Below, piece by piece: positions 1 through 25,895 of a DNA stretch of 37,399 nucleotides. The DNA is taken from assembly GCA_001724265.1 (NCBI GenBank), contig MEDY01000008.1, positions 124,001 to 161,399 on the forward strand, in the 5' to 3' direction. The position numbers were made by a program, and so were the translations under genes. Source of the stretch: Rhizaria sp. SCN 62-66. Taxonomy: Eukaryota. The notes under the pieces were generated by a model that had not been told where the DNA came from, did not search any database, and saw only the letters and a program-made list of their open reading frames with translations. How positions within the stretch are numbered: position 1 is the stretch's first letter; each line of letters begins with the position of its first letter.

Positions 1-1
1 G

Positions 2-1430
2 AGTCAGTTTCTCATTTGGTGAAAGAGCAACACCACCATACTCAATAGTACTGCGTGTACCAATCACTGCTGCCGCAGTTGAAAACAGATGCTGTGAGGT
101 CGTTGTAGCGGTGAGCTTTGAGGCTGTGTTGAATTCTGAGCGAAGAGAGAGTGTGCTGGAGACTTTAGCATCGCTGGTGTTTGGCTCGTAAACATAAGAG
201 AACGACGACTCAAAAACACGGACGAGGGGGGAAGGCACGTTACCAGTGACATACCCTACAGCAACGGTCGGCGAGAACCGCTGTTGCGCAAGCGGACGAA
301 GCGCAAGGTGTGTCAGGATGGGCATGCTTTTGATTGTGATCTTAATGCGCTCACAGACAGTCACATGCGTCCACACCGAACTCGGAAGCCCTGCAGTGAC
401 GCACAGCCGGAATCTGTACGAAGCACCGGGTGGTAGCGTGAATGCCGGAATAAACAGCGCAGTTTGATTCAGCGTTGTGACGGTGGATGCGAACAAAGCA
501 GGAAGCGTTTCATTGACGAGCGGGCCCCACTTATATGAGATAAACTCGTGCCCTGCTGCAGTTGAACAGGATGACAACGTGACAAGCGGAGTCACCGTGA
601 TTGCATCTGCAGCAGCATACGTGTTGCTGCGGCCGGAAAGGATCGAGATTAGCGGTCCGTCCGCGGCAAGGCGCGTCACATTGACCGTGGCAACAAACTC
701 GGAACCCAACCAATTTGTGACGCGGACAGAGAACGTTGCGGTTGTGCCTGCAGGAAGGAAGGTATCAACCTCCGTTGAGTTAAATTGAACTGTAAACACC
801 GAGGCGGAACTTGTCAGTGTTGAAAACGGCGTATTGAGATTGGTGGGTGCGATACGGTTTAATAAGGTGTTAAATGCAGCCACAGCGGCACTGTTAGTAC
901 CATTATTGACGAGCTCAAAATTCATCGACGGCATCATGCCAGCATGACCAATAATAGAACGCACGAGTAGAGTTAGTGGTGAACAGTTACCGATTGTTGA
1001 CGGCGCCGAAAGATCTGCAAACAAGCCCGGCAGAGACGCAGGCGCACGCACTGTTGCGGTGACTTGCGGCATAAAAGGCACCGAGTCATCGTCAATGTTT
1101 GCGTAGAGCGCAGAATTCGTGGCCGTCACAGCGGGCTTGATCACACCACCCTTAAAGGAGACAGTAGACACTGGTCGCAATGTAAAACCGGAGCCAAGGC
1201 GGATCCGAAAAACAGTAGGCGTGCGCCAGTGACATCCAGCGCTCGCCGTCTCACCCAAAAGATCTAATGTTGCCGTCACAAGCACATGCGTACATGTGTA
1301 AAACGTGCCACCAGTGTCGCGGACAGAGATGCCGTCTGCGTCAATGTACGTCGGCACCGGCTGCATGGTGGGGTACGTGAACGTAACGTCAACAAAAGAC
1401 CCAGCAGCGTCAAAATGCGCATCGGCAACG
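2..1430 (-). other. Start of a REJ / PKD1-like beta-sandwich region
   Basis: Motifs typical of REJ-domain proteins: AHFDAAGSFVDVTF...C...LLGETASAGCHWRTPTVFRIRLG, LSAPSTIGNCSPLTL, FSVRVTNWLG, SYKW, LFIPAFTLPPGASYRFRLCV. Recognised from memory of the family, not from an HMM run. Confidence 0.7.
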
Positions 1431-4400
1431 TTGCACATTGGAATACACATGATATCCTCGGCCCAACTGCCGGCCCACGTTATACCGGCGGAGGCGTTCG
1501 TCGCGTCAGACACGCGAGAACAGAGCGTGAACGACGTTGGATAGTAAACAAATCCACTCTTGCATGTGACATATGTTTCCGTGTCAATATCAAGCTCATC
1601 GGGACTCTTAGGGGAGGTGGGACCACCAATGATCGCCCCAGCGACATCAGAGTCGTCCCATATCTCGCCATCATCACTCATGTACGCAGCGCTATACATC
1701 GCAGAACGGGACTGATCAGAGACACCACTGACGCGTGACGCGCGGGGCTTAGAAGGGGCCACGAAGAACCCAATAGTGTGCAATTTTCCACCCCCCATCC
1801 CCCCGCCTGCGCCAGCATCGTTCGTGGCACCGCCCTCAAGTGTGGCGGGATCAACGACGTAAACCGTATTGTTCCAGCCAAGTGTATATGTAATCGAGAC
1901 CACACCAAGTCGCACACGCATGGCAGCGCAAGTTGGCTTCGGAACACACTGCGGCACATCCGGGCTCCATACTCCGCCAGTCTGACAGTACCGGTACATG
2001 ACGGATGAGCCGTAACCATAGCCTGCAAATTCGTAGCCAGTCTTGCACTCATATGTCACTCGAGTCCCTTCCTCGAGCGTGTGTTTGTTATAGTGGATAA
2101 TTGTGTTTGCTGGAACAATGTAGTTGGTCACCACAGGGAGGCACGCCCTGTTCGGATACGGCTCACACACAGGTGGTCCCGGCTCCCACTGTCCTTGTTC
2201 ACTGCATGTAGTCTTGACGTAGTGGATTTCAGAGTCTTTAACACGGAGACCAACGTCACAAACAAAAAAACGGGAACGCCCAGCAATAAACTCTTCTTGT
2301 AAAAACTGATATCTGGGATTGTTCCCTCCGTTGAAGTCAACAGTTTGGACAGTTTTAAAGACAGTTAGATTTGCGATGCTGTCTATCCAGTCGCAACTGG
2401 CAGCACATACCATGACTGAACCTGGGTTAGACCAATATGTCAGTGCGGATGTGTCGAACGTAGAGTCAAGAAAAGCCTGTGATTGAGCAAGATGACGTGA
2501 GCGGGCTGCTCCGTTCCGTAAAGCAGTTAGGCGTTTATCAGCGACTGCAGCAAGAGAAGCAACACCATCGTACGAGTTGTCAAACTGGTAGAAAGATGAG
2601 CTCTTGACGATAGCGGCAGCAGATTTGTTGAGGGTACACGTCCTACGAACACGGTTTGCACTATAGTCATCAAAGATTAACACAGTACCCAGCGTCGTGC
2701 GGCGATCATCACCTTCAACAACGCTAAGAGGCGCAATCAACAATGCCGTCGTCAATGAGGGACAAAACAATGTTAAATCTGAGGTAACATCGTAGATCTC
2801 GTCATCTTTGACATACCCTGGTTGGGCGTCTAACAGCACGCGGGGCTCAATAATAGTGACAACGTTGTTCTCGTCCATGGTGACAGAGCCAACAGTGATA
2901 CCTGCGTTCAGCGCTCGGAAGCTATGACGAGATGCTGTAAGCGGTGCCTGTGCAGAGAGTGAAGCCGCGATTGCAGCCCCATTAGCTATAGTGGGCAAAG
3001 TGGGGGCAGTGAGGGCGGCTGCGTTGAACATGCTCACATCCTTATAGTGAATATTCATTTGATTGACACGCTTTAGAATAGCGCTGTAAGGGAGCTTGGA
3101 GAGATAGAGCTCTTTATACTGAATCGGCACCACAGGATAACTAGCTGGCCCGCAACCGACCAGTGTGCACTCGAGTCCAGTCCGCTGCACCCAACCACGG
3201 CCAAATACGCACTCATACTTAGCAAGACTATTGGACGAGCCAGGCTCCACCGACCCAGTTGTCGAGTTCAAAGTCAACTTTGGCACATAACACTTGGTGA
3301 AAGCAAACTTTCCAACCGCACTGTGCGCAGCAACTCCCCAATTGTAAGAGACGCCTGAGTCAGGATCCGGTGCAATCCATTGACCAAAAGGAGCTTTAAA
3401 TACTGGGCATATGTAAGATTCGCACCGCGATGGTGTATATGACCACAGTCCTGTTGATAAGCACTCAACAGCAGAGCTTATAACGGTGCTCAAAACAAAG
3501 TTGGTCATGCATGTGAAGGCAAGAACTGTCCCAACAGTATAGCCGGTACCGAATGAATCGCTCACCCGGTCACCTTTGCGGACAGTGAAGGTGGGGAGCG
3601 GACGAGTAGCCGTGCCGTTCACGTTCGCAAATGGGTCTGGACACTGTACAGGAATACATGGCTTCATGGTTGACCAACCATCCGTGCGGCATACGATGTC
3701 TTCAACTGGTACATAGCGATCGGAAATGCAAACGGGATTTGCACGTGCGCTCTCAAGTGTAAGCTGCGTCGCACCTGTGAGTGCTGAGTAGAAAATTGAG
3801 GACACAGGAGACACAACAGGAAGTGAGCCGCAGTCGTAGCGAGCCACACAATTAACCGATGCCACACTCCATTGATAACCAGATGAAACAGCTGCGGCTG
3901 CAACTGCAAGAGAACGTAACATACGCCGCTGATGGCGCGAAGTACCATTATTGACGTCCTCAACATCAACTCCGTTGTTTTCAGACATTGCAGCCATGTC
4001 ATCAAGTGTAGCTTCCATAGAAGCTGTGACACGTGTACACACTATAGGCGTCGATGTCGACACTTTGAATGACGGTGATGAACACACAGGGACAACATAA
4101 GAGCCGGGAATACGTGAGTCCGTGTACGACACTGAACCGCCAGAAATTGCGGGAAACGTGGGGCACTGCGTTGTCGGTTCACACTGTAACGGGATTGTGA
4201 CTGAAACAGCCTGTACAGTCATACGCGCAGTATGTGATACCGACAAAGATGATGCGCTGGGCAGAACGGCAGCAATGGATGACGGGTCATATGGTGTCCA
4301 ACCCGCTGTTGTGCAGTTTAACGTGCTGATAGTGCCAGAGACCGGAGCAAACCAGGTGCGACAGACGAGCGTGGCAAGTGTGCCGAAAGGATGAGATGAA

Positions 4401-7400
4401 CGCTGTGCATCATATGTAGCTGTAGTCACCATTTGCGTCCCAACTAATGACACAACTAGCGGCAGTGGCGGACAATTTTCAGTAAATAGACAGACGCCCG
4501 TCATAGGAACTGTCACAGTGACGCCAGCTTCGCGCTCCCACACGCCACTACCGTTGCACGTGAGCGTCTGTTGCGAAATAGCAGCAGAATCCGTCACGGT
4601 GGTGTTTGCGCGGCAAGAGTAAGTCGCAACTGCGCCAGCAGGATACCCAGAAACGGGTTTGAACGAGTATACCGCACCGTTGCTCCCATGAGAGCGCACA
4701 GTGACTGTCATAGTCTGTGGTGTCGAAGGCGGCGAGTCGCAGTACACAGGCGTGCATACCGGTGCACGGCCAAACCATTTACCATTTGCGGCGCATTCAA
4801 CATCGCTTGCGTTGGTTTTGTAACCCCACGGACAGGCAATTGTAAGTACCGAACGGAACTCGGGATACGCAACACCCGTCTGGAATGAACCAACAGCGGC
4901 TAAGATAACTGAGTCGATCGTTCCCGCAAGAAGACACCGCTCACCAAGATCGCACACAGTGTAGGGCAAAGTAAACGTGCGGTTTGAGTTCGATGACACA
5001 GGTGTCACCGGGTTGAGGAGAGAACCTGCAGGGAGAACATGGTTCGTGGTGACAATGTTGCCTGCGGGGTCCATCTCGTACACTGTCTCAGTTACATGTG
5101 GACACTTAACGGGCTCACACAACGGAATAACCCCGTACCATTGCGCGTCTGTCATACACCGAAGCGTGCTCAGAGTGCCATCGGGCGCCGTGAGACAGAC
5201 CTCCGGATCCGTCGGTCCTGTCAGTGAGACAGACGGTGATGGTTGGTAACCACGTGCACAAGACAGGTACAGAGATACGGTGGCCTGCGGGTATACGCGC
5301 GTGGTGTTTGAGGAGGATACTTGTTGGGCAACAATAAATCGAGATTTAAGTTCAGGAAGCACGTCCTCGCACTGAGGGATAACGCACTGAAACGCGGTCT
5401 CGACGAGGGGGCCAGTCAAGACAACAGCACCGGAGGTCGGGTCACGCAGACGCCAGATAGCAACTTTCAGTGTCGGGTTTGATGAAGATGTCTCTTCAAC
5501 ACATTCATATTTACGGGTAGAGTCACCGACTTCATCGAGGGGAACCGCACCTGCTGAGGCAAGACATGAGACCTCAACAGACGTTGAAACCGCAAAAGAC
5601 CCACCGAGAGCAGCTGCATTGGAGTATGCAAGACTGACTCCAGCGGCAATAAGTGACGCTTCTGTAGCATTAACACCAAAAAGAGAAGCCGCGGAGCGAC
5701 ACATGGGTGTAGTAGAGCAAACGGGGGCAACGCCAGACCATGTACCTGTGCTTAAACAGCGGCGGATTAGTGAGCCTGCAATGAGATGCGAGTCCTCAGC
5801 ACACGCGTAAGTGATTATTGAGTCAGCGAGTGGGTACGAAGCGGTGTCCGTGTCACCATTGTGTGCTGAGAGCGTGAATACCGCGTTCGCCACAGTAGCA
5901 GGCAGCTCGCACGCAGCGTACGCCGCGGTAGCGATTGGCACGCAGAGTCCCAACACATACATCTCATTCAAACTCCGCCATTCTGCAACAATGCCGTTCT
6001 GAACGCATGCCCAGCCGACCTCGTCATGTTCGCGCCCCAATGCGCGCGCAGCGCCCTCGCGACACTGTGCACGCATAACTGTGCCAACCGGAAGTCCAGT
6101 AGTAGAGGCCGGTAGCATCGGATTTGTCCAACCACCAAGCTCGGCTTGACTCACAACCGCCGTGACGTAGACGGAGCCATTGAACGAGGGCAGGAGTGGA
6201 CACTCCGCGCGCACACAGGAGAATCTACTCACACCATCAGCATTTGTCCACTGAGGCACTGCGGTGTACACAGATGCAGCTCGAGCCTGACACGTCACAA
6301 CAAGCTCTGAGCCGCTGGCAGGGGTGTAGCCAGAAGCACAAGAATAACGCACGCGTGTACCGAGAGGGTACGGCTTGGCTGAGTTAACAAGGGTACTTAC
6401 TGCAGTCGGCAGCTCGAGCATGCTCACTCTGACGAGAGTCGCATTGTCAGACAATGCTGGAAGTGGGGGTACACTACAGCCCGTATAGTTAACCGATGGA
6501 ACAGTGCCGCAAGTAGGAAACACGCCAGTCCATGCGCCAGATGGGGCGCAATAGATTGTACTGGCACGAAAACTAAGAGGATCGTCCGTACTGTCGATTG
6601 ACGCAGTGGCAAGTGCAGAGAATGAACGCATCCGAAGCATCCTACGGCTAACAGTAGCAGGAGCTGAAACTGAGTTCAGGTCAGGGGGAGACTCAAGAAT
6701 GTTGGCAGTTGATGCACAGGTTAACGTTGCAACGGACCCAACAAGAGGGTATGTATGCGCCGCAATCTTCATCGGTGTAGAAGTGATAAGATGTGCAAAC
6801 TCCGAGCCCATATGCAAGCAAGCTGCATCCTGTGCGTACGCGACACAGCGAAATGTCGGTGAAGACACTGAAAACCTGCCCAAATCAGTCGAAACATCTG
6901 TTGCAGAAGTGCCACTTGCATTAGCAAGAGAAGTGATGTTTGTCCAAATAGCACCTGCACCTCCAGAGCCCGCTGCCTCACATCGCAGCCAGAGCGAGCG
7001 CGGTGAGCTGGGGCTGGGATGTGTTTGCGCAGCGCAGCCGATCGCAATCGCGCTTCCAACAGAAACTGTATCCCTGTACTTGGTCGGTGCACCCGTCCAA
7101 GGCCGCACAAACGTGCCATTGGTGACCGTGATAGCCATATTTGTTGCTAAAACCGGACGCGCGCATTGAAGATCGAGACACAGGGGTAGTGCGGTTACGT
7201 TGTACTTCCAAAGTCGTGTCTGGGTATCACATTCAATGTTAACCCAGTCAAGACCGGATGGCCGCGACGGGTGGCGACAACGGACGTAGATGGACTGGCC
7301 GGGTGAGCCGGTGATCTCACTAACGGGGTGCAGATCACTTGAGTCTGAATATGTAGCGCCGCTTACAGGTCTCTTTAGCAATGCAGCATGATGCGCCGAC

Positions 7401-10400
7401 ATAAACGAGGTCAGGGCAGGACACCGAGGCGCCACGCAGCTAAACGCAGCCGCCTCAGTGGGCCACGTCCACCGGCCGGTAAGTCCGTCACAAATACGAT
7501 AGAGTGGAGATACAGTACTGGCGTAAGGTTGCGGCGCATCTGCAGAACATGAATAACGTGCGACAGTGCCCATATCAAAACCACCATTAGTCGTAGAGCC
7601 ATTGGTATCACTGCGTAGAGTGCCGCCAGTGATGTTAACAGCATCGGTAAACAGATCAACTTGCACAAACTGCGGCGTGACTGTCTCGCCACCCTGTGTG
7701 ATCGGCAGTGGCTGCGTGTTGCTATCAAGTGCTAATGCAGGACATGACGCACGCGATGTGCAGATAGGAGGCTCACCACGCCAAGACCCGTCCGCAGCAC
7801 AGACGAGGTATGATTGACCTCCATAGGTGCCAGTGGGACACTGGAGCGTGATCCGTGAGTTGACCGCAGGATAAGTCACATTCACTCCATTAGGCTGCTG
7901 CAGTGACGTAACATAACCGCGCAACAATCCGGCAATGTCCTCACACACGGTGGTGATACACGAGAGTTCAGAGACGATATCTGCCTTTGCTTTAGTCCAG
8001 TAACCTACGTCGGAGACGCCATCGTGCTCACATGTCAAGTTGACATGCTTGTTGACCTCGGGCGTTGTAAAGAGCGCCCAGGTCTGGTGCGCAGTCGCCG
8101 GGCACATGTAGAACATCAGAGCACCATAAGGCCATTTCTTGACCAGATACCAGAATGACGTCCCAAGCCCAGTAGGAACGCCCGGTTGGGGACCAAGGCC
8201 GTCCTCTTCGGGAAGTAATACCGCACCAAGCCGCAATCCAGTGTAGCTTACCACAGGTAACGCACCACATGCCACGGGGACACAAGTTGGCAACGTCCCA
8301 ACCCATATACCGTTGGCGTTGCAGGTCAGCCGTGAGGAAGCAGGGACAAAACGGCGTTTACATTGAACAACCATGACAGATTTGTAATGCTGAAATGGTG
8401 CTGGGTCTTGCTCGCTTGCGTTGAATGAGCTTGGTGGGCCAAAATTGAAACGGTAGTTGCCAGTGAGCCCATTGTCGCTCGAGCAACGAGGATGCAGCTT
8501 CTCGCATCGCAACATCGACTCCATGACGACAGGCGACGTCGTAACATGACCATCGGTCCACGCCGCAGTTGCAGCAGCGTCGACAGTCGCATTAATGCGT
8601 CTCCACTGCGCCACTGCGCCAGAGGAGGATTGTACACATTGTGCGGCCACGACACCTTCGTCGTCATAAAGCGTCGCCACACCAGTGGATGAAAAGCTTG
8701 ATGATGGGGCGTAGCCGGGAGAGCAACGCAAGTGAGCGCGTGCATTGACACGGACGTGACCAGTCCCTGTAAGCAGTGACGGCGTGGGGTACGTCAGCTG
8801 GTAGGTTTCCAAAGCATAATCTGTCTCATCAGCACTAGGAATCATCAACATTTGCCGTGCTAGTGCGATTGTCATCACAGGACATAGTGCGGGTTTGCAG
8901 TTAAAGTTTTTCATTGCTACACTGGGAATCGCATCAGGCGGTACGTCTCCAGAATATGCTGAAACTTTACTTGGGACAGTCGAAGATGCCCATTTCGCAA
9001 ATGTCAGTCCAGTTGCGGCTTGGACGCTGTCAGAGCAAGTGTCCGAAACTGAGAATGTCACAAGTGCGGCGCCGTACTGGTCAACAGCTGAATAACCAGG
9101 CTTGCAGGAGGCAGTAACTGTGGTTCCAGGAGCAACCTTGACTGGAACGCGAGGATCGTCAAGCCTACCAAGTGTGTCTCCAAGGCGGGGCGCAGCCGCA
9201 TCCCGTGGGTTCACAACCGTGGTGCCGGTGAACACATTCTCGACCACAACATCCGCTTTAGTTCCGGATAAAGTGATAACTGCGCCTTCTGATTCGAGTT
9301 TGCCAGAGCTAGCAAGCTGTAGGGGGATTCGACAAGACCTGCGCGGGCACGACGCAAGTGTGTTCGCGCCAGCAAAGTCTGTTGGCAATGCAGGTACCCA
9401 CCGTGCTGTGGCGTTGCAGGAGTGGAATGAAATAGACTCATACCCCGGCTCAACGCAATAAACAGTGAAGTTACTCCCCATTACAGGTGGACTGAGCGTG
9501 GTTGAACCAATGACTTGGAGTTGACTTACAGGGTCAAAGCCTGCCCAGCGCAAGTGAGAGATTGCAGGACACTCAACGGCAGAGCAGACTTGCATAGAGG
9601 CCATTGTGACATTGTTCCACAGTGGCACTACATCGAGTGTAGGATCGCCAACTTTGTACCCGTAACCCAAGTGGTCACTGTACGTCTCCACTTCCGTCAC
9701 ACGCATTGGATCAACACGATATGGGCCACGACCACAAGACCGCCAGATTACGCCAACACTATTCACATCTGGCGATTCACCAGCGGCGCTGCACGACTGT
9801 TGCACAACAGCGCCCACTGGGTAATGAATTTCACTCGCGTAACGCCAGGGGAGCGCCATTGAGTCGCGCTGGTCATCAGTGGCCGTGACCGTGGGCAGGT
9901 CCAGCATCGGAAGAGTGCGGAATTGAAGCCGTGAAGCAGAAGGTTTGTGCATCGGCAGTACGCAGACGGTGTCTGCGCGGCAGGAGGTTCCTTGTACAGC
10001 CCAAACACCATCAACGCAAGAGATCGTACCTCTTGTGCCAATCTCTGGTGTGAGCGTGACGTAGTGGGCAGGACAGACTGTTGTCAACTCAGTCTTGAGG
10101 CCAGAAACAGAGGACGTGTACGCAGAGACTGAGATCGATTCTAACAGCGACGACCGCGGCTTGGCCCATTGTGGTAAATGTAAACACTCACTTGGGACGC
10201 ACAGCGGAAGGCCAACACCGTTACCAAGGACTTGGTTTGTGTCGACAGCAACCCAGGACCCACGGCGGAACCCAGCCTGTGCAGCGGTTGCAGCCTCTTT
10301 TGTCGCCGTCATAATGACTTGCGTTGTGGTAGTGCTACTTCCAGAAGCGGCTGGCGTCGACGAAGTGTCACAATCAATATCACTATAACCACACCACGTA

Positions 10401-12220
10401 TCTCCAAACGCGCGTGCCTGCGTCCTATCGGTACTGGTTGCACGGCATTCAAACTGCATCGCAGCTGGTAAAGCAGATAGCGTACTCTGAGGCACGGGCA
10501 GACCACCGAAGGGACACGAGAACGTAACAACCGTGCCAGACGGGAAACGGCGGCCGCGGAACGGTAATGTTGTCGTGTTGTCAGACGCTGAAGCCAGAAG
10601 AAACTTCGGCTTCGCGCCAGGAAATACTGGTGGTTGCGAGTACGACGTTAACAGCCCAACAGTAGACGTATACGTCTGAGGAAATCCGTCACATACAATT
10701 GGCAGGCATACAGCACACATAATTAAAATGGTACGCGCACTTGCAGTTGTCACACGTTGCGGGAGCGATTCAGCGAGGGCCAGCAGTGCAGTTTCATCTG
10801 GGTCAGATCCAATAGACGTAGGTACGCTTGTAGGAACCGATGATAAAACTTGACGCCACTCACCAGGGCCAGTTGGTGAAGCGTAACACTGGTATGATGC
10901 AACTGGGCGGGCGTCAACAGAAGACACAGCAGCATTGCGGCAGGTAATGTGCGCAAAGGCACCATCACTGAAGACGTGCAAGCCATCGATCAGGCCGCCA
11001 CCGGCGCCAGGAAGGTCATCTGCGCTGATAGTATCAAGTTTTCCATTCGCTGCGATCTTTGCCGCAGCCAGCACTGCGCTCATGGCGGGGCTCGCTCGGA
11101 CCGTGCTGAGGACAGGCGGGGGCAGCACGCCCTGATCTGCGGAGGCCACCGCGTATTGCGAGTAGTGCAGACGCATGTGCGGCGGTAAAGCGCGCTCCAG
11201 TGGATGCGGGCCGCACTGCGCAGGACAGCGCGCAAGTACCACAGGCCGTGTTGCAACCGTGTTGACCTTGGCGTCGCCAGGAACGAGCGGCGTGGTTGAC
11301 GACGCGCTCTCGCGCAGATGTGTGCGTGTATGCCAGCGACCGCGACGACAAGTAAGTGCAACAGCAGTGGCAAGATACGGCGTGGTAACTGTCGCCGTAG
11401 CGGCAGCAGGAAGTGCAGGGATAAGAGTTGAACCGGAAAGAAGAGTTGTCAGATTAACGTAACTCGCATCGGGCTCAGGTGCAGGTTCAGACTCGGGTTC
11501 AGGTTCAGCGCTGTTATTTTCGTCGTTGTCAGTAGTGTCCCCAGGCGTTGTAACATCAGGGTTCACATCCGTATCAACGCCTCCGTCAGCGTCATCACCA
11601 GAGTTTGCGTCAGTCGTTGTCGAGTTAGTATCGCCCGCCGTGGTGTTGGACTGGAGCCAGGGAGGCAACGAGTCATTACCACCAATCAGCGCCAAGCCAA
11701 CAGGGTTCAGCTCCGTGTTGTCTTGTAGTGAGCTCACGCTGCTTGGGTCAGCGCCGAAGTAAGATGGCTCCTCAGTGAGAACAAAGAGATCAGGGACAGC
11801 GTTATGCCAGCATGAGAATGTGACTACGGTGTCTTCCAACGCAAACACAGACGGACGTAAAACAGCATCCGGGTTGGGGGAAACAACATTGGCGCGAACG
11901 AGCGCTGGTGATGCGGAGATTGACGAGAGATTAAGGTATGACAAGGTGGAAACGAGCGAGAAGGGGTCGGAGCAGTGAGAACCTGACGTGAGCCAGGGAT
12001 CGATGTTCGTTTCCGCATCACCGCGTTGGAAAACGGCAGCAGGAATCTCTACAGTATAACCAAATAATGGGCCGGTTGAAGGTGGCGAGTCGGATATACC
12101 ACCACACTTGGCACCCCAGGTAACGCCAGAGGGCGGTGATGAGACGTCGGTGATGAGTGGAGCTTGCGCAGCGGCGAGAGACAGCAGAACTGCAAGTGTC
12201 AGTGCGATTAGGGTGTCCAT
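2..12220 (-). CDS. Giant secreted or cell-surface protein (>=4073 aa, 3'-partial): signal peptide + Sushi/CCP-like repeat array + REJ (polycystin-1-like) module
   Basis: Manual translation of the minus frame from ATG 12220 gives MDTLIALTLAVLLSLAAAQAPLITDVSS... and is still open at the window start (...GTRSTIEYGGVALSPNEKLT). No stop was found in the stretches translated. The ORF track lists no terminated ORF in this frame between 1 and 12220, as expected if it has no stop in the window. An in-frame upstream ATG at 12262 is an alternative start. Confidence 0.92.
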   Translation of the reverse strand, partial: MDTLIALTLAVLLSLAAAQAPLITDVSSPPSGVTWGAKCGGISDSPPSTGPLFGYTVEIPAAVFQRGDAETNIDPWLTSGSHCSDPFSLVSTLSYLNLSSISASPALVRANVVSPNPDAVLRPSVFALEDTVVTFSCWHNAVPDLFVLTEEPSYFGADPSSVSSLQDNTELNPVGLALIGGNDSLPPWLQSNTTAGDTNSTTTDANSGDDADGGVDTDVNPDVTTPGDTTDNDENNSAEPEPESEPAPEPDASYVNLTTLLSGSTLIPALPAAATATVTTPYLATAVALTCRRGRWHTRTHLRESASSTTPLVPGDAKVNTVATRPVVLARCPAQCGPHPLERALPPHMRLHYSQYAVASADQGVLPPPVLSTVRASPAMSAVLAAAKIAANGKLDTISADDLPGAGGGLIDGLHVFSDGAFAHITCRNAAVSSVDARPVASYQCYASPTGPGEWRQVLSSVPTSVPTSIGSDPDETALLALAESLPQRVTTASARTILIMCAVCLPIVCDGFPQTYTSTVGLLTSYSQPPVFPGAKPKFLLASASDNTTTLPFRGRRFPSGTVVTFSCPFGGLPVPQSTLSALPAAMQFECRATSTDRTQARAFGDTWCGYSDIDCDTSSTPAASGSSTTTTQVIMTATKEAATAAQAGFRRGSWVAVDTNQVLGNGVGLPLCVPSECLHLPQWAKPRSSLLESISVSAYTSSVSGLKTELTTVCPAHYVTLTPEIGTRGTISCVDGVWAVQGTSCRADTVCVLPMHKPSASRLQFRTLPMLDLPTVTATDDQRDSMALPWRYASEIHYPVGAVVQQSCSAAGESPDVNSVGVIWRSCGRGPYRVDPMRVTEVETYSDHLGYGYKVGDPTLDVVPLWNNVTMASMQVCSAVECPAISHLRWAGFDPVSQLQVIGSTTLSPPVMGSNFTVYCVEPGYESISFHSCNATARWVPALPTDFAGANTLASCPRRSCRIPLQLASSGKLESEGAVITLSGTKADVVVENVFTGTTVVNPRDAAAPRLGDTLGRLDDPRVPVKVAPGTTVTASCKPGYSAVDQYGAALVTFSVSDTCSDSVQAATGLTFAKWASSTVPSKVSAYSGDVPPDAIPSVAMKNFNCKPALCPVMTIALARQMLMIPSADETDYALETYQLTYPTPSLLTGTGHVRVNARAHLRCSPGYAPSSSFSSTGVATLYDDEGVVAAQCVQSSSGAVAQWRRINATVDAAATAAWTDGHVTTSPVVMESMLRCEKLHPRCSSDNGLTGNYRFNFGPPSSFNASEQDPAPFQHYKSVMVVQCKRRFVPASSRLTCNANGIWVGTLPTCVPVACGALPVVSYTGLRLGAVLLPEEDGLGPQPGVPTGLGTSFWYLVKKWPYGALMFYMCPATAHQTWALFTTPEVNKHVNLTCEHDGVSDVGYWTKAKADIVSELSCITTVCEDIAGLLRGYVTSLQQPNGVNVTYPAVNSRITLQCPTGTYGGQSYLVCAADGSWRGEPPICTSRASCPALALDSNTQPLPITQGGETVTPQFVQVDLFTDAVNITGGTLRSDTNGSTTNGGFDMGTVARYSCSADAPQPYASTVSPLYRICDGLTGRWTWPTEAAAFSCVAPRCPALTSFMSAHHAALLKRPVSGATYSDSSDLHPVSEITGSPGQSIYVRCRHPSRPSGLDWVNIECDTQTRLWKYNVTALPLCLDLQCARPVLATNMAITVTNGTFVRPWTGAPTKYRDTVSVGSAIAIGCAAQTHPSPSSPRSLWLRCEAAGSGGAGAIWTNITSLANASGTSATDVSTDLGRFSVSSPTFRCVAYAQDAACLHMGSEFAHLITSTPMKIAAHTYPLVGSVATLTCASTANILESPPDLNSVSAPATVSRRMLRMRSFSALATASIDSTDDPLSFRASTIYCAPSGAWTGVFPTCGTVPSVNYTGCSVPPLPALSDNATLVRVSMLELPTAVSTLVNSAKPYPLGTRVRYSCASGYTPASGSELVVTCQARAASVYTAVPQWTNADGVSRFSCVRAECPLLPSFNGSVYVTAVVSQAELGGWTNPMLPASTTGLPVGTVMRAQCREGAARALGREHDEVGWACVQNGIVAEWRSLNEMYVLGLCVPIATAAYAACELPATVANAVFTLSAHNGDTDTASYPLADSIITYACAEDSHLIAGSLIRRCLSTGTWSGVAPVCSTTPMCRSAASLFGVNATEASLIAAGVSLAYSNAAALGGSFAVSTSVEVSCLASAGAVPLDEVGDSTRKYECVEETSSSNPTLKVAIWRLRDPTSGAVVLTGPLVETAFQCVIPQCEDVLPELKSRFIVAQQVSSSNTTRVYPQATVSLYLSCARGYQPSPSVSLTGPTDPEVCLTAPDGTLSTLRCMTDAQWYGVIPLCEPVKCPHVTETVYEMDPAGNIVTTNHVLPAGSLLNPVTPVSSNSNRTFTLPYTVCDLGERCLLAGTIDSVILAAVGSFQTGVAYPEFRSVLTIACPWGYKTNASDVECAANGKWFGRAPVCTPVYCDSPPSTPQTMTVTVRSHGSNGAVYSFKPVSGYPAGAVATYSCRANTTVTDSAAISQQTLTCNGSGVWEREAGVTVTVPMTGVCLFTENCPPLPLVVSLVGTQMVTTATYDAQRSSHPFGTLATLVCRTWFAPVSGTISTLNCTTAGWTPYDPSSIAAVLPSASSLSVSHTARMTVQAVSVTIPLQCEPTTQCPTFPAISGGSVSYTDSRIPGSYVVPVCSSPSFKVSTSTPIVCTRVTASMEATLDDMAAMSENNGVDVEDVNNGTSRHQRRMLRSLAVAAAAVSSGYQWSVASVNCVARYDCGSLPVVSPVSSIFYSALTGATQLTLESARANPVCISDRYVPVEDIVCRTDGWSTMKPCIPVQCPDPFANVNGTATRPLPTFTVRKGDRVSDSFGTGYTVGTVLAFTCMTNFVLSTVISSAVECLSTGLWSYTPSRCESYICPVFKAPFGQWIAPDPDSGVSYNWGVAAHSAVGKFAFTKCYVPKLTLNSTTGSVEPGSSNSLAKYECVFGRGWVQRTGLECTLVGCGPASYPVVPIQYKELYLSKLPYSAILKRVNQMNIHYKDVSMFNAAALTAPTLPTIANGAAIAASLSAQAPLTASRHSFRALNAGITVGSVTMDENNVVTIIEPRVLLDAQPGYVKDDEIYDVTSDLTLFCPSLTTALLIAPLSVVEGDDRRTTLGTVLIFDDYSANRVRRTCTLNKSAAAIVKSSSFYQFDNSYDGVASLAAVADKRLTALRNGAARSRHLAQSQAFLDSTFDTSALTYWSNPGSVMVCAASCDWIDSIANLTVFKTVQTVDFNGGNNPRYQFLQEEFIAGRSRFFVCDVGLRVKDSEIHYVKTTCSEQGQWEPGPPVCEPYPNRACLPVVTNYIVPANTIIHYNKHTLEEGTRVTYECKTGYEFAGYGYGSSVMYRYCQTGGVWSPDVPQCVPKPTCAAMRVRLGVVSITYTLGWNNTVYVVDPATLEGGATNDAGAGGGMGGGKLHTIGFFVAPSKPRASRVSGVSDQSRSAMYSAAYMSDDGEIWDDSDVAGAIIGGPTSPKSPDELDIDTETYVTCKSGFVYYPTSFTLCSRVSDATNASAGITWAGSWAEDIMCIPMCNVADAHFDAAGSFVDVTFTYPTMQPVPTYIDADGISVRDTGGTFYTCTHVLVTATLDLLGETASAGCHWRTPTVFRIRLGSGFTLRPVSTVSFKGGVIKPAVTATNSALYANIDDDSVPFMPQVTATVRAPASLPGLFADLSAPSTIGNCSPLTLLVRSIIGHAGMMPSMNFELVNNGTNSAAVAAFNTLLNRIAPTNLNTPFSTLTSSASVFTVQFNSTEVDTFLPAGTTATFSVRVTNWLGSEFVATVNVTRLAADGPLISILSGRSNTYAAADAITVTPLVTLSSCSTAAGHEFISYKWGPLVNETLPALFASTVTTLNQTALFIPAFTLPPGASYRFRLCVTAGLPSSVWTHVTVCERIKITIKSMPILTHLALRPLAQQRFSPTVAVGYVTGNVPSPLVRVFESSFSYVYEPNTSDAKVSSTLSLRSEFNTASKLTATTTSQHLFSTAAAVIGTRSTIEYGGVALSPNEKLT
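1430..11850 (-). other. Tandem array of about 25-30 Sushi/CCP-like modules (count by eye), many with loop insertions
   Basis: Recurring C...G.V.Y.C..GY...C...G.W...P.C pattern. Examples: TLQCPTGTYGGQSYLVCAADGSWRGEPPIC (~7760-7850), ITYACAEDSHLIAGSLIRRCLSTGTWSGVAPVC (~5715-5820), IACPWGYKTNASDVECAANGKWFGRAPVC (~4750-4845), GTRVTYECKTGYEFAG...RYCQTGGVWSPDVPQC (~1945-2070). Confidence 0.85.
12167..12220 (-). other. Signal peptide of the giant protein
   Basis: MDTLIALTLAVLLSLAAA|QAP: hydrophobic core followed by an A-x-A cleavage site. Confidence 0.8.
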
Positions 12221-13059
12221 GCGCGCGTTTGAGCACACGTATAGCCACGAGGAAATCCGCATGATTAACGTGCTCAACAACAAACGCTTCGTTGGGTCTT
12301 GCAAGACGACAAGAGTGCGAAGACGAATGCCTAAGGAGGCCTGATGGCCACAATACGTCCGAAGTGGGCTGGACGGCCAAATCAGTTCGATCGGAGCGTT
12401 TTAAAGGTGGAGACGTAGTGTACAGCTCAAGTAGTTGTTATATGCGGAGCTGTGTCGATAAAGACAATATGAAAAAGGACGAAGAGTGCCCTAAAACAAT
12501 CACGACAAGCTGCAAAAGAAAATAAAAGAGAGAACCGCAGACACACATTTAAACAGCTTTATGAGAGCAGGATGAACAATTTAAAATAAGAAATAAGATC
12601 TTCCCGTGCATTACAGTATAGGCAAAAGAGAAGCTGCGAACAACAACGATGAGGGTATTGACAACATCCCCGTTATATTCGTCAACTCAGATCGATCGTA
12701 GCCCCTGTTCAACCCCCACACGACACCATAAATGCGAAGCATCTCTTCGTTGTCACAGCATTATGTCGAGCTCTAGCGCGTTAAAATATGCGTCGATTAA
12801 CTTAGATTTGTGATTTAATGATTAAACAGGTAGTTCCCGTATTTTAAACTCGATTCATACTTGAGGCATATCTGACTTCATGCACTAAAAACATGCGTAA
12901 CGCGAGGTAAGATTCGGCAGATTAATTTTGTTGATCCCGGAAGGGGAAAATAGACAACGCTGCTGATGTGTGATACTGTTCATCGCAAGTAGGTGCCGAC
13001 TCAGTTGCACAAGATATTCAAGGATGGAGTATTGATATGTTCCGTCTCACTAACCGTTA

Positions 13060-13920
13060 AATGCTGGCAGAGCTGCCTCAGTGACTGTTCAAACCAGGGC
13101 ACGTGCTTCTACGACCATTGCTCTGGACATTGTACTTAAAGTGTGGGCGGCAACGCACGCGATCCGTGGCAGTCGCTACCGTCGCCACATGAATGTTAGG
13201 GCCACGGCTCGTGCAAGCTCGACATGTACTTCCGCGAGCCGGGTTTCGGGGGCGCCGCGTGCTCACCGACAGGGTAACCTGTAACAGTCACGGCTAATGC
13301 CTCCGCAACCAGTGGACCTTTGCTGACGGCTACACAAGCGTCCATTGCTGCTGAATTAGACACATGTTCTTTATGTTGTGCATTTCATGCTGATCTCCTC
13401 ATTCTTCGTATTCTTGTTGTTGCTCTATACGATGGGCTTGTGATGACGCTGTCAGCCATAGCTGTCGCTGTGGGATGAGAGTGTTGTGGTAACGTAATGA
13501 TTGGTCGCTGTCGTGGCATCCCCAGGGTCCGTAGCTGTGTTGGTGCTGGTGTTGTTCTTCGTTGCGCTCACAGTGTTTTTTTCTCTGATAACTCTCTCGC
13601 GATAAGTATATGGGTATGAACGCTCTCCTTGGGGCTGCGAATGACTCAGCGCGGTCTCGAGCTTGGCGCACCGAGTGCAGATTTCTGGCGCTTGGCGCGC
13701 GCCCTTCCGCGACGAACGCGGAACGCGGTAACGACAAAAAGACTTTCTCATGCCACCGCGCGTTGTGCACATCGTTGCATTGATGTGAGTACCATGTAGC
13801 GCGCAACATGGAGATGACAGAGCACAAGCCTGCGTTCATACACTCTGGACACGTGCCTTTTGTGACACAAGCACACGTCGGCGCAACACTCGATTTCTTA
13901 ACGTTGAAGTTACGCGACAC
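13060..13920 (-). pseudogene. Possible decayed coding sequence of unknown family
   Basis: Protein-like segments in different minus frames (AMDACVAVSKGPLVAEALAVTVTGYPVGE; GAPETRLAEVHVELARAVA) are separated by frameshifts and stops. No family recognised. Confidence 0.25.
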
Positions 13921-17284: not shown

Positions 17285-20200
17285 ATGCACTCTTCTGCGC
17301 GTCCCAACGCAGGGCAATGGTCCGAGTATGGCTCTGACCCGGACTCGTTGGGCTATGGCAGCTGTATTCCACGCTCTAACGCACCGCTTGGTCCTCCACT
17401 TCCCTCGCAGGGCACTGCAGGCGGTGGCAACGGAAGAGCTGGGAGATCCGGTGCAACGCTGTCTTCATCTTCTTCTTCGTCGCAAATGGCCTACATTGCG
17501 GATTGCTTTAACGACAGCTTTGATCCAGACGCTGCCGCATCCGACATGGACAGTCCGGTCACCGCTGCAGGCTTGCCCTCCAACCTTCCTCCTAGCCTTT
17601 CAGCTGCGGTCGATGCTGCTCTATCCCAAGTCGGTTTCTCACTACAGTTCCAGTCTCCCAACACCGACAGCAGCACCGCCAACTACAGCGCGCAGCACTA
17701 CAAACTCTCCCCGCGCGCGTCCCCATCCCGCGCCGGCACAACCGCGCGCCGCCTCTCCCCGCGCACGTCCTCTGATGCATCCACCTCAGGCGCCCACCGG
17801 GCCGGCGGCATCGACCCGGTTCACAACAGCAGCAACATCAACAGTAACTCTGCGGTCCCCTCGGCGGGCGCTCTATTTTCCGACAGCAGCGACGACGCTG
17901 ACCCTGACGCCGCGCTGGAGTTCTTTCTCGATGCCATCGCGTCCGCTCTCGACGCCGTCGTCGACCTCGCGACTGCGCCCGCCGCTCCTGCCGGCAGGAG
18001 CGGCGCCGCGGCCCTCCTGCCGCCGACCCCGCGGTCGCGGCGTCTGCAGGCGGACCCCATGGCGGTGGCGCGCGCCGCGGCGGCCGCGTTTGACGCCCAC
18101 GTCGCGCCCATCGCGCGTGGCCTGCCGGGCTGGCGAGACGCGTTCGCGCCTGTGGCGGCCGCCGCGACCGCCGCGGTGACCGCTGCGACAACCATCACGG
18201 GGCAGCACGGCAACGGACACAGCCATGGGCGTAGTCACAATTATGGGCATGCTCACGGCCACTCAGGCCCTGATGCCAGTCAAAACCACGGCCCCAGCCA
18301 AAGCTTCGGTCCGGGGCGCACGAGCTCCGCCGTCGCCATCGCCGACGCCGTCACGCGCGCTGCGCTCGCCAACGGTGCCGCGGCGGGGGGCGGCAGCAGC
18401 GCATCTGCGAGCGGTTTGATCCCCCCGGCCGCAGCGAGGGAGCTTGTGCGCGCCACGGCCTCCGCGGCCTCTTCCTCGGCCGCGGGGCTCTTCCTCCGGT
18501 TCGCACTCTCGGAGGCGCTGTTGCTGGCTGCCAGCGCGGCGGCTTCGGCGCTGCTCCAGGTCGCCGCCGCGGTTGCCGCGGAAGCCGAGGCGGGCAGGGC
18601 CGCTGAGGCTGAGGCTGCCGCCGATGCTAAGGCCGGTGCAGATGCGCTGGGAGGCGTGCTCGTCTGTCTCGTCGCCTGGTGCGTCGCGGCGGGCGCTGAT
18701 CCTAACTACAAGGTACGGCTGTGCTTCACAAACGATCATGAGACTCCGACCGAACATGTGTTGCCTATAACATCGAACTGTGTTTTGTACTCACACAATC
18801 TCTGTCTTCTGCACCCCTTTTTATCAGTGTGCGGACCGTGGGGATACAACACCCCTTCTCGCGCTGTTGCACTCAGCCGCGACCGCAACAGCGCCTACCG
18901 TCCCCGCTGCGGCGTCCACAGACAGCCCCGGCAGCGCTAGCAGCGTGCGCCTTAGCACCCCCGAGTCGCGCGCAGATGTGCTCGACTTGACTCTGTCCGC
19001 GCTGGCGCGTGTGCTGACTGCGCTGGGTGCGGACACGAACACGGCTGCGGCCGCGTCCGTCGCGGAAGAGAGCCTCTACGAGGGCGACACGCCGCTGCTG
19101 CTCGCCGCTGTTGCCGTGCTTGACGACACACTCGAAACATTACTTAAGGTACGCAACACGCTCACGGCATACAGCATCACAGATGACATGAATGTATGTT
19201 ACGATCGAAACCGGACGCGTTATCTTCGCATCAAACTATCTAACTCAACGATATCATGGTATATTTTCCCCTCAGGCCGGAACGAACCCCGCGGCGGCGA
19301 ATGCGCACGGCTCAACGCCGCTGAGCTTCGCGGCCTTCAACGGCCGGCCCCGCGCGCTGACGCTGCTGCTCTCCGCGGGCGCGAGCGCCAACAGCGCCGG
19401 CCGCGACGGCTTCACCCCGCTCATGTCTGCTGCGCGCGGGGGACACGGGGACGCCGTGACTGTCCTAGTCGCCGCCAAGGCAGACGTCAATGCGGCCACG
19501 GTGTCGGGGCTCACGGTCCTTATGGCTGCCTGTCAAGCGGACACGACGGATTCGTACGTATATCCAAGAGAACAATAACTTATTGACATGAAGCAATCAC
19601 TTTGTTACTCATTTTATATGTTACTTACTGTGCCTCGAGATTGAATCATCCTGCATTGAACTTTGTTTGTATAGATCTCGCCTGGATCTGGTGAAGCAGC
19701 TCCTGTCAATGGGCGCGTCACCCGCGCCGATCCCGCTGCCCTTCCCCGCCCAGCCCCAGCGGCCCAACTCGACGGCCCCGGCGCCGCCGCAGTGTCTGAC
19801 GTCGTGCCTGCACGCCGCGGCCGCCACAGGTTCGCTGCCGCTGGTGCGTCTCCTGCTCACGGTCACCCCGCCCCGGTCCACCGGCGGTCCGGCCAGCTCC
19901 CCCGCGGCGTCACCTGCCACGGCCGGGCGCGCGCCGGGCCCCGGCGTGGCGCTGCTGCCGCCGGGGCTGGTGGACGCGCACGGCCGCACCGCCAGCGACG
20001 TGGCGCGCGAGTGCGGCCACCGCGTGCTCGCCGACTACCTCGCCGACGCCGCCGCGGCCGCAGCTGCCGCCGCTGCGGCCGTCGCGGTCGCCAAGGGCGC
20101 TGCGAACGGCACGAACGATGCAAATGTGGGCAGCGGCGGCGGCAAGAGTGCAACGAGCGAGCCGGCGCCCGGGACGATCGCGTACGTCGCGCGCGGCCTC

Positions 20201-20863
20201 GGGGCAACGCTTCCTGTTCCTGCTGCAAACTGCGCGGCTGAGGCTGCGGCAGCGCGGGACGCGGCGCTGCGCGTGCTCAAGGCCGTGCAGTCCGTGTCTG
20301 CTGCGGGCGCGGCGCCAGCGACTTCTGCACCCGTGATATCGGGTGGACAAGGACAGACGCAGTTTGACACACTGGCGCTGCCATCGGTGAACTCAATGGG
20401 CCTCGCCAAACATCAGCAGCAACTAGAGCAACAGCAGCAGCAACAAGCGGTGGCCGTTGCTGCGGCGGCAGCTCTCGCTGCGCTTAGTTCGACGGCTCAC
20501 ACCAACTACGGCCTAGGTAGCACTACAACAGCGACTGTAGCATCAACGACGCCCTCCGGCTCCGGCATCGAACTCAATATGGACGCACTGCGCCTCACTA
20601 AGCCCCCGCCGGCTCAGCCGCAGTCGCAGGCTCCGCAGCGGAGTGACCGTGAGCAGCCCGGTCCCGGCGCGGCCGGTGAGGCCCGCCCTGGGTCGCCCGC
20701 GATGTCGCTGGCAGCGTCATCGGCCTCTGGCGCCACGGCGACCTCCGACGCGACATCCTACGCCACTGCGGTGCCGCTGGGACGCACAGGCAGCTCGCTC
20801 CCGCCCTACGCCAGCGGGCTGCAGACTTCGCTGCCGCAGCCGCAGACTGGACGCACCACACAA

Positions 20864-20907
<44 letters not shown>

Positions 20908-22933
20908 CTCGACCTCTGGCTCCAGCGCCATCGCCGGCGCAGGCGCGAGCGCGAGCTTCAGCGCCGGTGTGGGGGTGGGGCGCGATAGGGCAGGGCGCGG
21001 TGACGCCGTCACTGCAGTGGCCGCGGCGGTCTCGGCGGCAGCGACCCGCCTTGCCCCGGGAGGCAGCGGCGGCGCCAGCGGCGGCGGTGGCGGCGGCGGC
21101 GGCGGCGGTGCAGAGGGCTGGGGCTGGGACCTGACGGTCGACCTCGACGACGAGAATGACACTCGCGACGACAGCGACGACGACGACGACGGCACGGGCC
21201 GCGGCGGCGGCAGCGACACCGGCAGCGCCTACGGCTCCGGCCCCGGTTCCACCGCGGGCGGGCAGCACGCCGGCGGCGGCAATGCCAACGGCGGCGGGGC
21301 CGGCGGGTCGCGGCTCTCGCCGCGGGGCTCGCCCGGGCGCCGCCGGACGTGGTCGCCGGTGCACACACCGCGCTCTGCCGCCAACCTCGCCGCGCAGGCC
21401 GCTATGGCACAGGCGATTCCCAGTGCAAATGCAAGCGCAAATGCGAGTGCGGGTGTGAAGGCTGCTGATCCCGAGCTTGAGCAAATGCTCGAACGCTCTT
21501 GGCAGCTTGCAGCGCAGCAACAACAAACTCAGCAGCAGCCGCAACAGCAGACACAACAGTCACAATGGCGCAACCATATCCCGTCTCGTCCTCGCGCCAG
21601 TCAACCTCAAACACAGGCGCAGCAGCAAGTGCCGCAACAGCAACAGGTGCCGCAGTCCCCCATGCGTGCTGGACCGGTCCACTCCGGCCCCGGCCAGCAG
21701 CAGCAGCAGCAGCAGCCGCAGCAGAGGCGGCCGCCGTCGTCGCCATCGACGGCACGCGCGAATACTGGCGCGAGCAATGGCAACGGCAACAGCGACTTGC
21801 TCAAGACTGTGTACAGCGACCTTCTCTTCGCACGTCGCACCGCCAACGCGACTACCACAGCTGCAGCTGTAAGCAGCAGCAGCGCTGCAGGGAGCCGTGG
21901 CACGCGCCCAGTGTCCGCGCAACGCGGTCCCGCGCCGACGAGCGCCAACGGCTCTGCACCGACGGCCGCCTCGGCCGCAGCAGCAGCGGCTGCATTGGGC
22001 AACGGCGCGGGTGCGACGCCAGGGCACAGGCGCAGGCCCAGCGGCGGCAACGCCAGCTCAGCGTATGGCCCGGCATACGGCTCCAGCTACAGCGCCGGGG
22101 CAGCGGGCTCTGGAGGCAGTACGGCGGCTTCTGGCGCTGGCGCTGCGCCGCGCACGTTTGCGACGAGCGACGACTTTGACGCGTTTCTGCACGCGCTGCG
22201 CCGCCGCAACGGGCTCCCCGCCACCGGCGCCCCAGGTTCTGGCCCTGGTGCTGGTGTCGGAGTGAGTGCGAGCGGGTTCACCGGCTACCAAGGCGCCAAC
22301 AACGCAAACGCCGGATACAGTCAACATGGCGCCAGCGCTGGCGCCGGTGCTGGCGCGGGCTCTGCTGCGGGCGCGTCGTCGTACAGCCCCTACAGCGCGT
22401 ATGGCGCATATGGGGCTGGGGCGGGCTCCGCTGCGGCGGGGGCGGCGCGGCGACAGGCCACCGGCCGCGCTGGCGCTGGCGCCCATGCGTACTCGGCAGC
22501 CGGGCCCGGGACGCCGCGCAGCAAGGCCTCTGGCGCCGCGGCCGGCAGCGCGTACAGCAATAACGGAGCCCGCGCTGGCTTCGGCGCTGGCTCCTCGAGC
22601 GGTGCGGGCGCGGATCCAGGCGCGCGTGATACGTATGTACCCGGCTTTGCGTCCCCGCAAGCCACGGCGGCGGTGCGGCCGGCGATCGTGGTGCTGCTGC
22701 TGCGGCTGCACACTGTGCTGCCGCCGCTGGACGGCACCGCGGGGCCCTACGCCTTCGCGGCCGCGCTGGGCGGCTCTAGGGTCAGCGCGGCGCTGGTCAA
22801 GTCGGCGTACCTTGAGGCGCTCAAGGTGGCGCACCCGGACAAGCAGGGCGGCGACGAGAAGCGCGTTGCCGCCGCAGAGACAGCGTTTCAACAGTTGCGC
22901 GAAGCTTACAAGCAGTTTACCGGATCTGCATGA
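17285..22933 (+). CDS. Ankyrin-repeat protein with C-terminal auxilin-type J domain; join(17285..18712,18828..19148,19276..19553,19675..22933), ~1761 aa
   Basis: Three GT-AG introns join four ORF-track frames in phase and restore ankyrin repeats (GADPNYK|CADRGDTTPLL; EGDTPLLLAA..LETLLK|AGTNPAAANAHGSTPLSFAA; DGFTPLMSAARGGH; CLHAAAATG; DAHGRTASDVARECGH). The C-terminus reads LLLRLHTVL...VKSAYLEALKVAHPDK...AETAFQQLREAYKQF, with HPD at 22832-22840. The start codon choice is uncertain. Confidence 0.88.
18713..18827 (+). other. Spliceosomal intron 1 (115 nt, phase 0) of the ankyrin/J gene
   Basis: AAG|GTACGG...TACTCAC...CCCCTTTTTATCAG|TGT. AT-rich relative to the exons; removal restores the frame. 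Confidence 0.9.
19149..19275 (+). other. Spliceosomal intron 2 (127 nt, phase 0)
   Basis: AAG|GTACGC...CTAAC...TTTTCCCCTCAG|GCC. Removal restores the ankyrin motif LLK-AG. Confidence 0.9.
19554..19674 (+). other. Spliceosomal intron 3 (121 nt, phase 2)
   Basis: TC|GTACGT...TTTGTTTGTATAG|A. Contains stops; removal joins to the 19667..22933 frame. Confidence 0.85.
20861..20905 (+). repeat. (CAA)2(CAG)13 coding microsatellite, polyQ15
   Basis: Directly visible in exon 4 of the ankyrin/J gene. Confidence 0.95.
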
Positions 22934-25437: not shown

Positions 25438-25474
<37 letters not shown>

Positions 25475-25895
25475 CACCAGCAGCAGCGCGTTGTCATGCA
25501 GAACAACAACCAGCAGCAGCAGCAGTTCGGCGGTAACTACACCGCGCCCATGCAGTCCCCGCCGTCGCCCACCGCCGACGGCATGAAGGCCAAGGCGCAG
25601 CCTCAGCCCCAGCAGCAGGGCCAGCAACAGCCTGCGCAGCCCCAGCAGCAGGGCCAGGGCCAGCAGCAGCAGCCGGGCCAGCCCCAGCAGCAGCACCAGC
25701 AGCACCAGCAGCAGATGGGCTACGACTACAACTACAACATGGGCTACAACAACTACAACATGATGCAGCAGCCCCAGCAGCAGCAGCAGGGCGGTTACAT
25801 GAGCCAGGGCCAGCAGCAGCTGCAGCAGCCCCAGCAGCAGCAGTATTCTGCGCACATGGGCTACGGCTACCCGCCCCAGCAGGGCCAGGCCCAGG

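Follow-up and report, generated by a model that had tools for sequence, protein, structure and literature searches.

A giant Sushi-stalked surface protein with a predicted polycystin-1-like five-helix membrane region in a likely rhizarian flagellate

The window analysed here is a stretch of 37,399 nucleotides corresponding to G000:C8:124001-161399 within a 34.9-Mb eukaryotic assembly of 714 contigs. Its minus strand carries one stop-free frame (positions 2..12400, 4,133 codons, no N) that is open at the left edge. A sequence-only reading of the window had proposed a stop-free minus-strand frame of at least 12.2 kb, and this agrees both with exact translation of 2..12400 and with extension along the contig, where the frame continues for 11.2 kb beyond the left edge (from 1..2 onward, minus strand) and adds ~3,750 aa holding the rest of a REJ region, a GAIN/GPS region, the membrane segments TM1-5 and a tail. 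Between stops the frame measures 7,872 aa; counted from its first Met (window position 12262) it measures 7,826 aa, and it ends on this strand at a TAG or, if TAG is a sense codon as discussed below, at a TAA that follows ten added residues (7,836 aa). The start given earlier, at 12220, is the second Met (Met15); it does open the hydrophobic signal segment, but the first Met lies at 12262. The earlier description of the gene as intron-free is compatible with the sequence, as the lowest 80-nt GC content in the gene is 0.36, whereas the introns that we inspected in this genome are AT-rich. Three further frames lie on the plus strand of the window: a 1,113-aa frame at 19592-22933 with weak Pfam matches to DnaJ and ankyrin, a 998-aa Q-rich frame at 23600-26596 that Pfam does not match, and a 1,502-aa PAF-acetylhydrolase-like frame (Pfam) at 30705-35213. 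No link between the giant gene and these three neighbours was seen in the window.

Four sequencing runs from three studies contain at least half of the sampled words; those that are labelled are bioreactor or wastewater metagenomes, and one of the four is a possible source of the assembled DNA. In run X4, from another study, overlapping contigs span window positions 1-13500 with indels solely upstream of the receptor frame. Among the differences listed for a second strain (40 of 57), 36 fall within the receptor frame, with 23 synonymous, 13 non-synonymous and no stop, and these give a pN/pS of ~0.19. Together with five paralogues that are colinear with the receptor, these data argue against the long frame being an assembly artefact or a decaying pseudogene, an explanation that could draw on the frameshifts in some family loci (C367, C212, C558 and C581) and on one in-frame TGA in the homologue P0280 from another organism. 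We consider this explanation largely refuted and very improbable, and the gene to be real. The frameshift in C367, which falls within a polyQ tract, may be an assembly error; the TGA in P0280 lies between REJ and GPS, near position 9965 of the P0280 piece examined, with no obvious frame-keeping intron. One polyA run contains seven matching contigs of 157-473 nt, at low depth and inside the receptor frame, with none in the 1.2 kb upstream; because such libraries can contain DNA, these contigs are only a weak hint that the gene is transcribed. Run X13 is probably DNA.

The encoded protein begins with a predicted signal peptide (start and signal peptide at 12167..12262, minus strand, with Met1 at 12262 or Met15 at 12220). 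The hydropathy profile places its hydrophobic segment at aa 15-32, and this segment aligns with its counterpart in three paralogues, in keeping with the signal peptide proposed from the sequence alone. It is followed by an array of ~31 Sushi/CCP-like modules (aa 97-3606; 1445..11974, minus strand) recognised by Pfam, by a profile of our own, by cysteine spacing and by PDB matches. The modules are ~60-250 aa each, many of them with large inserted loops, and most have the four cysteines and late Trp of Sushi/CCP proteins; the count of ~31 comes from cysteine spacing with three irregular segments merged by eye. A Sushi profile built from other loci of the same genome, with the receptor left out, found 22 modules in the receptor (top score among 20 shuffles and one reversal, 2.7 bits), Pfam Sushi matched nine stretches (E 5.6e-41), and in the PDB aa ~2855-3620 match the complement regulators Crry, factor H and CR1, with an E-value of 1.8e-6 at best. 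The ~25-30 CCP-like modules reported earlier are therefore well founded, as are the REJ-type motifs: the first part of the REJ region (~aa 3610-4087; 2..1435, minus strand) scores 22.7 bits with Pfam REJ inside the window (cut-off 25) and 44.1 bits across the window edge. The first module contains an acidic, Thr/Asp-rich low-complexity insert that is visible in the translation (~aa 205-270; 11453..11650, minus strand) and whose sole Pfam match is a sub-threshold, compositional, PARP-like one. The ectodomain carries 66 N-glycosylation sequons.

A GPS reading C-A-C-T-R-L|G-L-Y lies within the GAIN region just before TM1 (C8:120519-120620, minus strand; Pfam, 27.1 bits, cut-off 22.5), so that extension of the contig recovered both the GAIN/GPS site and the membrane helices, five in number, that had been predicted to lie beyond the window. 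The H/R-L|T/S autoproteolysis triad is absent from this GPS. The R-L|G reading is kept in all six members of a subfamily that are 45-60% identical (on contigs C8, C233 on the minus strand, C367, C232, C2 and C112), and all 15 other GPS loci examined in the genome (C172 left out) have H-L|T. Readable GPS triads among the best 150 of 557 relatives are H-L|T in 112 of 122 cases and R-L|G in none of the 122. The T838G change in latrophilin has been described as blocking cleavage while allowing folding and surface transport, and BAI3 as having Arg at the position of the GPS His (PMC3321182). Because Gly replaces the catalytic Thr/Ser, as in the latrophilin precedent, the GPS of the receptor is probably uncleaved, as judged from its sequence. 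The stalk-agonist signalling of polycystin-1 has been described as involving a TOP domain (PMC11458180), and this domain is absent from the receptor. In a model of the compact paralogue C279 the GAIN domain is recovered by Foldseek (E 9e-8) and matches adhesion-GPCR GAIN domains with Z up to 15.6; a single-sequence model of the receptor's own GAIN-TM1 region had a pLDDT of 33 and was discarded.

Downstream of the GPS, hydropathy gives five hydrophobic segments in a 1+2+2 pattern, followed by a polar tail up to the stop. TM1 (~aa 5279-5299) is followed by a 480-aa loop, TM2-3 (aa 5813-5884) by a 900-aa loop and TM4-5 (aa 6790-6862) by a 970-aa Q/S-rich tail, these loops and the tail comprising ~2,350 aa of low-complexity sequence. 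Basic residues flank TM2 on its N-terminal side and TM1, TM3 and TM5 on their C-terminal sides, a placement that agrees with an N-terminus outside and a C-terminus inside the cell. The cytosolic regions of the receptor have no effector domain that Pfam recognises, and its five helices do not make up a seven-helix GPCR domain. The receptor is matched by a profile of 12 compact paralogues in three blocks, all colinear, which score 22.6, 11.9 and 3.1 bits where the highest of 21 controls scores 0.7 bits; the TM4-5 block by itself accounts for just 3.1 bits. The AlphaFold model of paralogue C279 (pLDDT 68, pTM 0.50) superposes on polycystin-1 residues 3063-3620 with Z 18.5 and 2.9 A over 207 residues, and in an unbiased comparison with 48,161 chains polycystin-1 came first (Z 17.2). 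For the membrane part alone, the best match other than polycystin-1 among these chains has Z 7.0. By sequence only, the family profile reaches polycystin-1 with E 0.044. As predicted by this paralogue model, and carried over to the receptor through the colinear profile blocks, the five helices correspond to the TM1-TM5 bundle of polycystin-1.

PKD1 proteins are described as having eleven helices, with TM1-TM5 forming an N-terminal domain and TM6-TM11 a TRP-like half (PMC8357825), so that the receptor would match only the first half of PKD1. Between TM1 and TM2 the loop is of low complexity, and no PLAT domain was found there by Pfam or by a profile built from three PLAT-bearing relatives; nor did any channel-family profile (TRP-like half, pore) match the receptor, whose helices number five and not eleven. 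The receptor is not a full PKD1, since both PLAT and the six-helix channel half are absent. The proposal that this unicellular eukaryote has a giant surface receptor akin to polycystin-1 has thus held up through its REJ, GAIN/GPS and TM1-TM5 matches, with the likeness to polycystin extending to the five-helix N-terminal membrane domain but not to PLAT or the channel half.

A PKD2-type partner, for which the sequence-only reading suggested a search, was not found among the six PF08016 matches in this possibly incomplete assembly. Four of these are Ion_trans-type channels and the remaining two look like what we take, from their motifs, to be mucolipins. A PF20519 profile search returned no matches anywhere, controls included. 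Such a partner would be expected if the receptor were one half of a split polycystin that gates a separate TRP-type channel in trans. That polycystin halves are separable follows from PKD1L3, whose C-terminal TRP-fold half alone has been described as sufficient for channel activity with PKD2L1 (PMC8357825), and two weak PKD_channel-type genes are present on C38 and C93; set against the make-up of the six PF08016 matches, this leaves in-trans gating distinctly unlikely in our judgement. The same PKD1L3 result leaves the role of a TM1-TM5 half open. A separate channel gene of the voltage-gated type lies at G000:C55:82001-92000, where an 11,291-aa open frame was scanned over 3,333 aa and shows four Ion_trans stretches, with further helices upstream.

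The genome contains 22 GPS loci. The paralogues share conserved cytosolic motifs next to the membrane and another at the C-terminus, and in those on C205, C356, C47 and C181 a kelch propeller takes the place of Sushi on the same GPS-membrane base. Sushi matches occur on 34 contigs. Giant membrane proteins with Sushi arrays form a second family at 11 loci (C663, C11, C68, C141, C19, C163, C382, C408, C43, C30 and C67), with open frames of up to 9,238 aa; nine of the 11 were scanned and show Sushi, TIG and ephrin-receptor-like Cys repeats followed by a multi-pass region, five of the nine with a sub-threshold PF06011 match.

The host is likely a rhizarian flagellate. In a one-gene tree of a DEAD-box helicase, built from 74 hand-chosen matches out of 120, it groups with Amorphochlora and Paulinella in one clade (SH-aLRT 97); the helicase match list alone did not place the organism. 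The best named match of one host kinase is from Plasmodiophora, and dynein heavy chains have matches at 11 loci in the genome.

A wider search of 1.84 billion representatives with the family profile retrieved 557 clusters (E <= 1e-10). Among the best 150 of these, 113 combine a GPS with the TM2-3 block and lack both PLAT and channel; the TM4-5 block is present as well in 60 of the 113, and six have both PLAT and channel. This sample was drawn with a profile biased toward PLAT-less forms, and nine of the 150 are this genome's own. Named relatives belong to Paulinella, Rhodelphis and Ploeotia. In the 34 of the best 150 that were scanned with Pfam, the ectodomains are of the EGF, fn3, TSP1, kelch, cadherin or F5/8 type, and the domains C-terminal to the GPS are RGS, RhoGAP, B-box or SAP; P0230, P0268, P0216 and P0217, all from other organisms, are REJ-GPS or GPS multi-pass proteins with such fusions after the GPS. 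P0275 is a full-length PKD1-type protein with kelch repeats. Sushi was found by Pfam in two of the 34 relatives scanned, both JGI proteins that are 37-38% identical to paralogues from this genome, and the JGI protein P0280 aligns across 4,442 aa at 35% identity and contains 24 modules, REJ and the R-L|G site. Since 113 of the best 150 relatives are channel-less and only two of the 34 scanned carry Sushi, the core is widespread and the Sushi stalk narrow in distribution. We found no Sushi-REJ-GPS protein in the literature searched, which consisted of the main texts of mostly freely accessible papers. The earlier claim of novelty is accordingly divided: the REJ-GPS-5TM core is common in unannotated protist data and has a precedent in the Tetrahymena CRMPs as described in PMC9670195, while the size, the Sushi stalk and the R-L|G site look specific to this lineage, the stalk and the site having turned up solely in this genome and in a few relatives from environmental data. 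The locus encodes a variant on a polycystin-1-like plan and not the new system that had been envisaged.

The paralogues also bear on the genetic code of the host, as they carry lone in-frame TAGs with conserved sequence on the far side. Stops flanked by coding-like sequence on both sides in the DNA examined comprise 27 TAG, four TGA and two TAA, with all six such TGA and TAA and at least one TAG lying in AT-rich, intron-like sequence; terminal-like stops comprise 39 TAA, 23 TGA and eight TAG. Lone TAGs occur in nine of 133 kinase matches (lone TAA, one; lone TGA, none); five of the nine are exonic, and the other four were rejected as codons because they are splice acceptors. The codon is rare, at 26 of 156,063 codons in loci that overlap. 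Very probably, TAG is a sense codon or is efficiently read through. Dynein heavy chains were considered as a decoder of TAG and set aside since their TAGs lie mostly in intron sequence, and an in-frame TGA in the dynein gene on C164 was rejected as a codon because it falls inside a GT-AG intron. A first all-against-all analysis had pointed to Tyr, a result discarded when antisense frames were found to dominate it, and the analysis was redone on sense frames.

A candidate decoder is a 73-nt tRNA with a CUA anticodon on G000:C84 (1489-1561 of the piece examined, minus strand; Rfam 58 bits), which is followed by a T run. It shares 5/7 acceptor positions and 20/25 last bases with the host tRNA-Glu(TTC), compared with 1/7 and 13/25 for the host tRNA-Gln. 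Only one Glu isoacceptor entered this comparison because a host tRNA-Glu(CTC) was not found. With bacterial tRNA-Glu the CUA tRNA shares ~74% identity across 56-65 bases, and most of its top matches among phage and E. coli records bear a tRNA-Glu annotation, though the E-values are weak. A strict tRNA-Glu/Gln pattern matched no tRNA. Protein alignments at 11 TAG sites give log-likelihoods of -31.7 for Glu, -33.5 for Gln and -31.6 for Asp, and at an overlapping set of 11 sites -32.1 for Glu and -32.3 for Gln, and so they do not separate Glu from Gln; at one kinase TAG site Gln is favoured (Q 26, K 24 and E 6 of 100). On balance we lean slightly toward TAG encoding Glu, with TAA and TGA as stops and TAG read by the CUA tRNA with its Glu-type body. 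A Gln meaning is possible but rather unlikely, and a mixture of Glu and Gln highly unlikely. TAG-only codes have been listed for Leu, Gln and Ser, and TAG as Glu only where TAA is reassigned too (PMC11687900, PMC10553269, PMC5304391, as far as these sources were available). Within the main texts of mostly freely accessible papers we found no nuclear code in which TAG alone encodes Glu, and if the Glu reading is right this would be a nuclear code for which we found no report in that literature. Recoding of TAG means that standard gene callers truncate these genes and that intact paralogues resemble pseudogenes. The database protein P0281 ends at a TAG.

We consider it fairly probable that the protein is a contact or adhesion receptor in the plasma membrane which belongs to the polycystin-1/REJ-GAIN lineage, signals via its cytosolic loops and has no ion channel. 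In such a receptor the CCP chain would form a glycosylated stalk that binds prey, substrate or other cells. From the length of a CCP module, the stalk would measure roughly 100 nm. With Gly standing for the catalytic Thr/Ser at the GPS, the ectodomain would remain covalently attached, and for this reason pull or binding would travel via the intact GAIN domain to the five-helix bundle, without shedding or release of a tethered agonist. The signal might then leave through the conserved juxtamembrane helices and through disordered cytosolic loops that recruit partners. By analogy, the output could be contact-triggered secretion, as in the Tetrahymena CRMPs, or cytoskeletal or G-protein regulation, as suggested by the relatives that carry RhoGAP or RGS domains.

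The protein might instead be a structural surface-coat protein or adhesin for which the five-helix bundle is merely an anchor. The very large ectodomain with its many sequons, the uncleavable GPS, the spread of Sushi matches over 34 contigs and the lack of a recognised cytosolic domain would all suit such a role. A single helix would suffice for anchoring, though, and the juxtamembrane cytosolic and C-terminal motifs are conserved among the paralogues; expression also looks low in one RNA run, a weak point as contigs cannot rank expression. We therefore hold a purely structural role to be unlikely and retain the contact receptor as the preferred reading.

We see about an even chance that the TM1-TM5 bundle is an old, free-standing, GAIN-coupled protist receptor module with no channel and that PKD1 arose by fusion of this module with PLAT and a TRPP channel. 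If so, the Tetrahymena CRMPs would belong to this module family. That this history, with its giant Sushi-stalked expansion and natural uncleavable subfamily, and a nuclear code with TAG as Glu both hold is a more tentative proposition. TM1-TM5-only proteins with cleavable (H-L|T) and uncleavable (R-L|G) sites in one genome allow a test of stand-alone signalling and of the need for cleavage, and channel-less receptors of this kind would connect polycystins with the GAIN and five-helix exocytosis sensors of ciliates.

Among known systems, the PKD1 family (PKD1, PKD1L1-3 and PKDREJ) resembles the receptor in its large ectodomain, in REJ, in a GAIN/GPS that precedes TM1 and in the TM1-TM5 bundle. 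The receptor differs in having five helices and not eleven, in lacking PLAT, TOP and the pore domain, and in its CCP stalk, its R-L|G at the GPS, its cytosolic loops and tail of 480-970 aa and its length of ~7,830 aa. Adhesion GPCRs (latrophilin, BAI3, CELSR and CD97) likewise place a GAIN fold behind a long adhesive ectodomain (profile E 5e-17, Z 11-16), but their seven-helix domain is lacking in the receptor, and membrane-only matches to GPCRs do not exceed Z 7. The combination of GAIN with 7TM has been described as holozoan (PMC12716839), and GAIN domains in Tetrahymena and Dictyostelium have already been published (PMC3321182). Animal CCP arrays (CR1, factor H and Crry) are similar at the level of the module; the modules of the receptor, often 80-250 aa long with inserts, sit on a REJ-GAIN base, and there is no pointer to complement regulation.

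A further known system is the male-gamete protein Esi0130_0068 of Ectocarpus, a REJ-GPS multi-pass protein proposed as a recognition receptor, which like our protein combines REJ, GPS and a multi-pass region outside animals (PMC4700764). As described there it is unlike the receptor in having 1,427 aa and 6-7 predicted helices, with no Sushi array reported. The Tetrahymena proteins CRMP1 and CRMP2 (TTHERM_00442310 and TTHERM_00637180) are described as having a GAIN domain (by HHpred) and five predicted helices, as being required for mucocyst exocytosis and as proposed contact sensors (PMC9670195). Their likeness to the receptor, GAIN plus five helices, is drawn from this published description; their ectodomains have EGFR-like cysteine repeats in place of Sushi, and the passages that describe them make no mention of REJ or polycystin. 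In the Atlas the top matches are clusters with ciliate members (0.94 with REJ/GPS and 0.91 with no family). By analogy with what is described for them, the Tetrahymena CRMPs would be the nearest functional precedent for the giant Sushi-stalked receptor.
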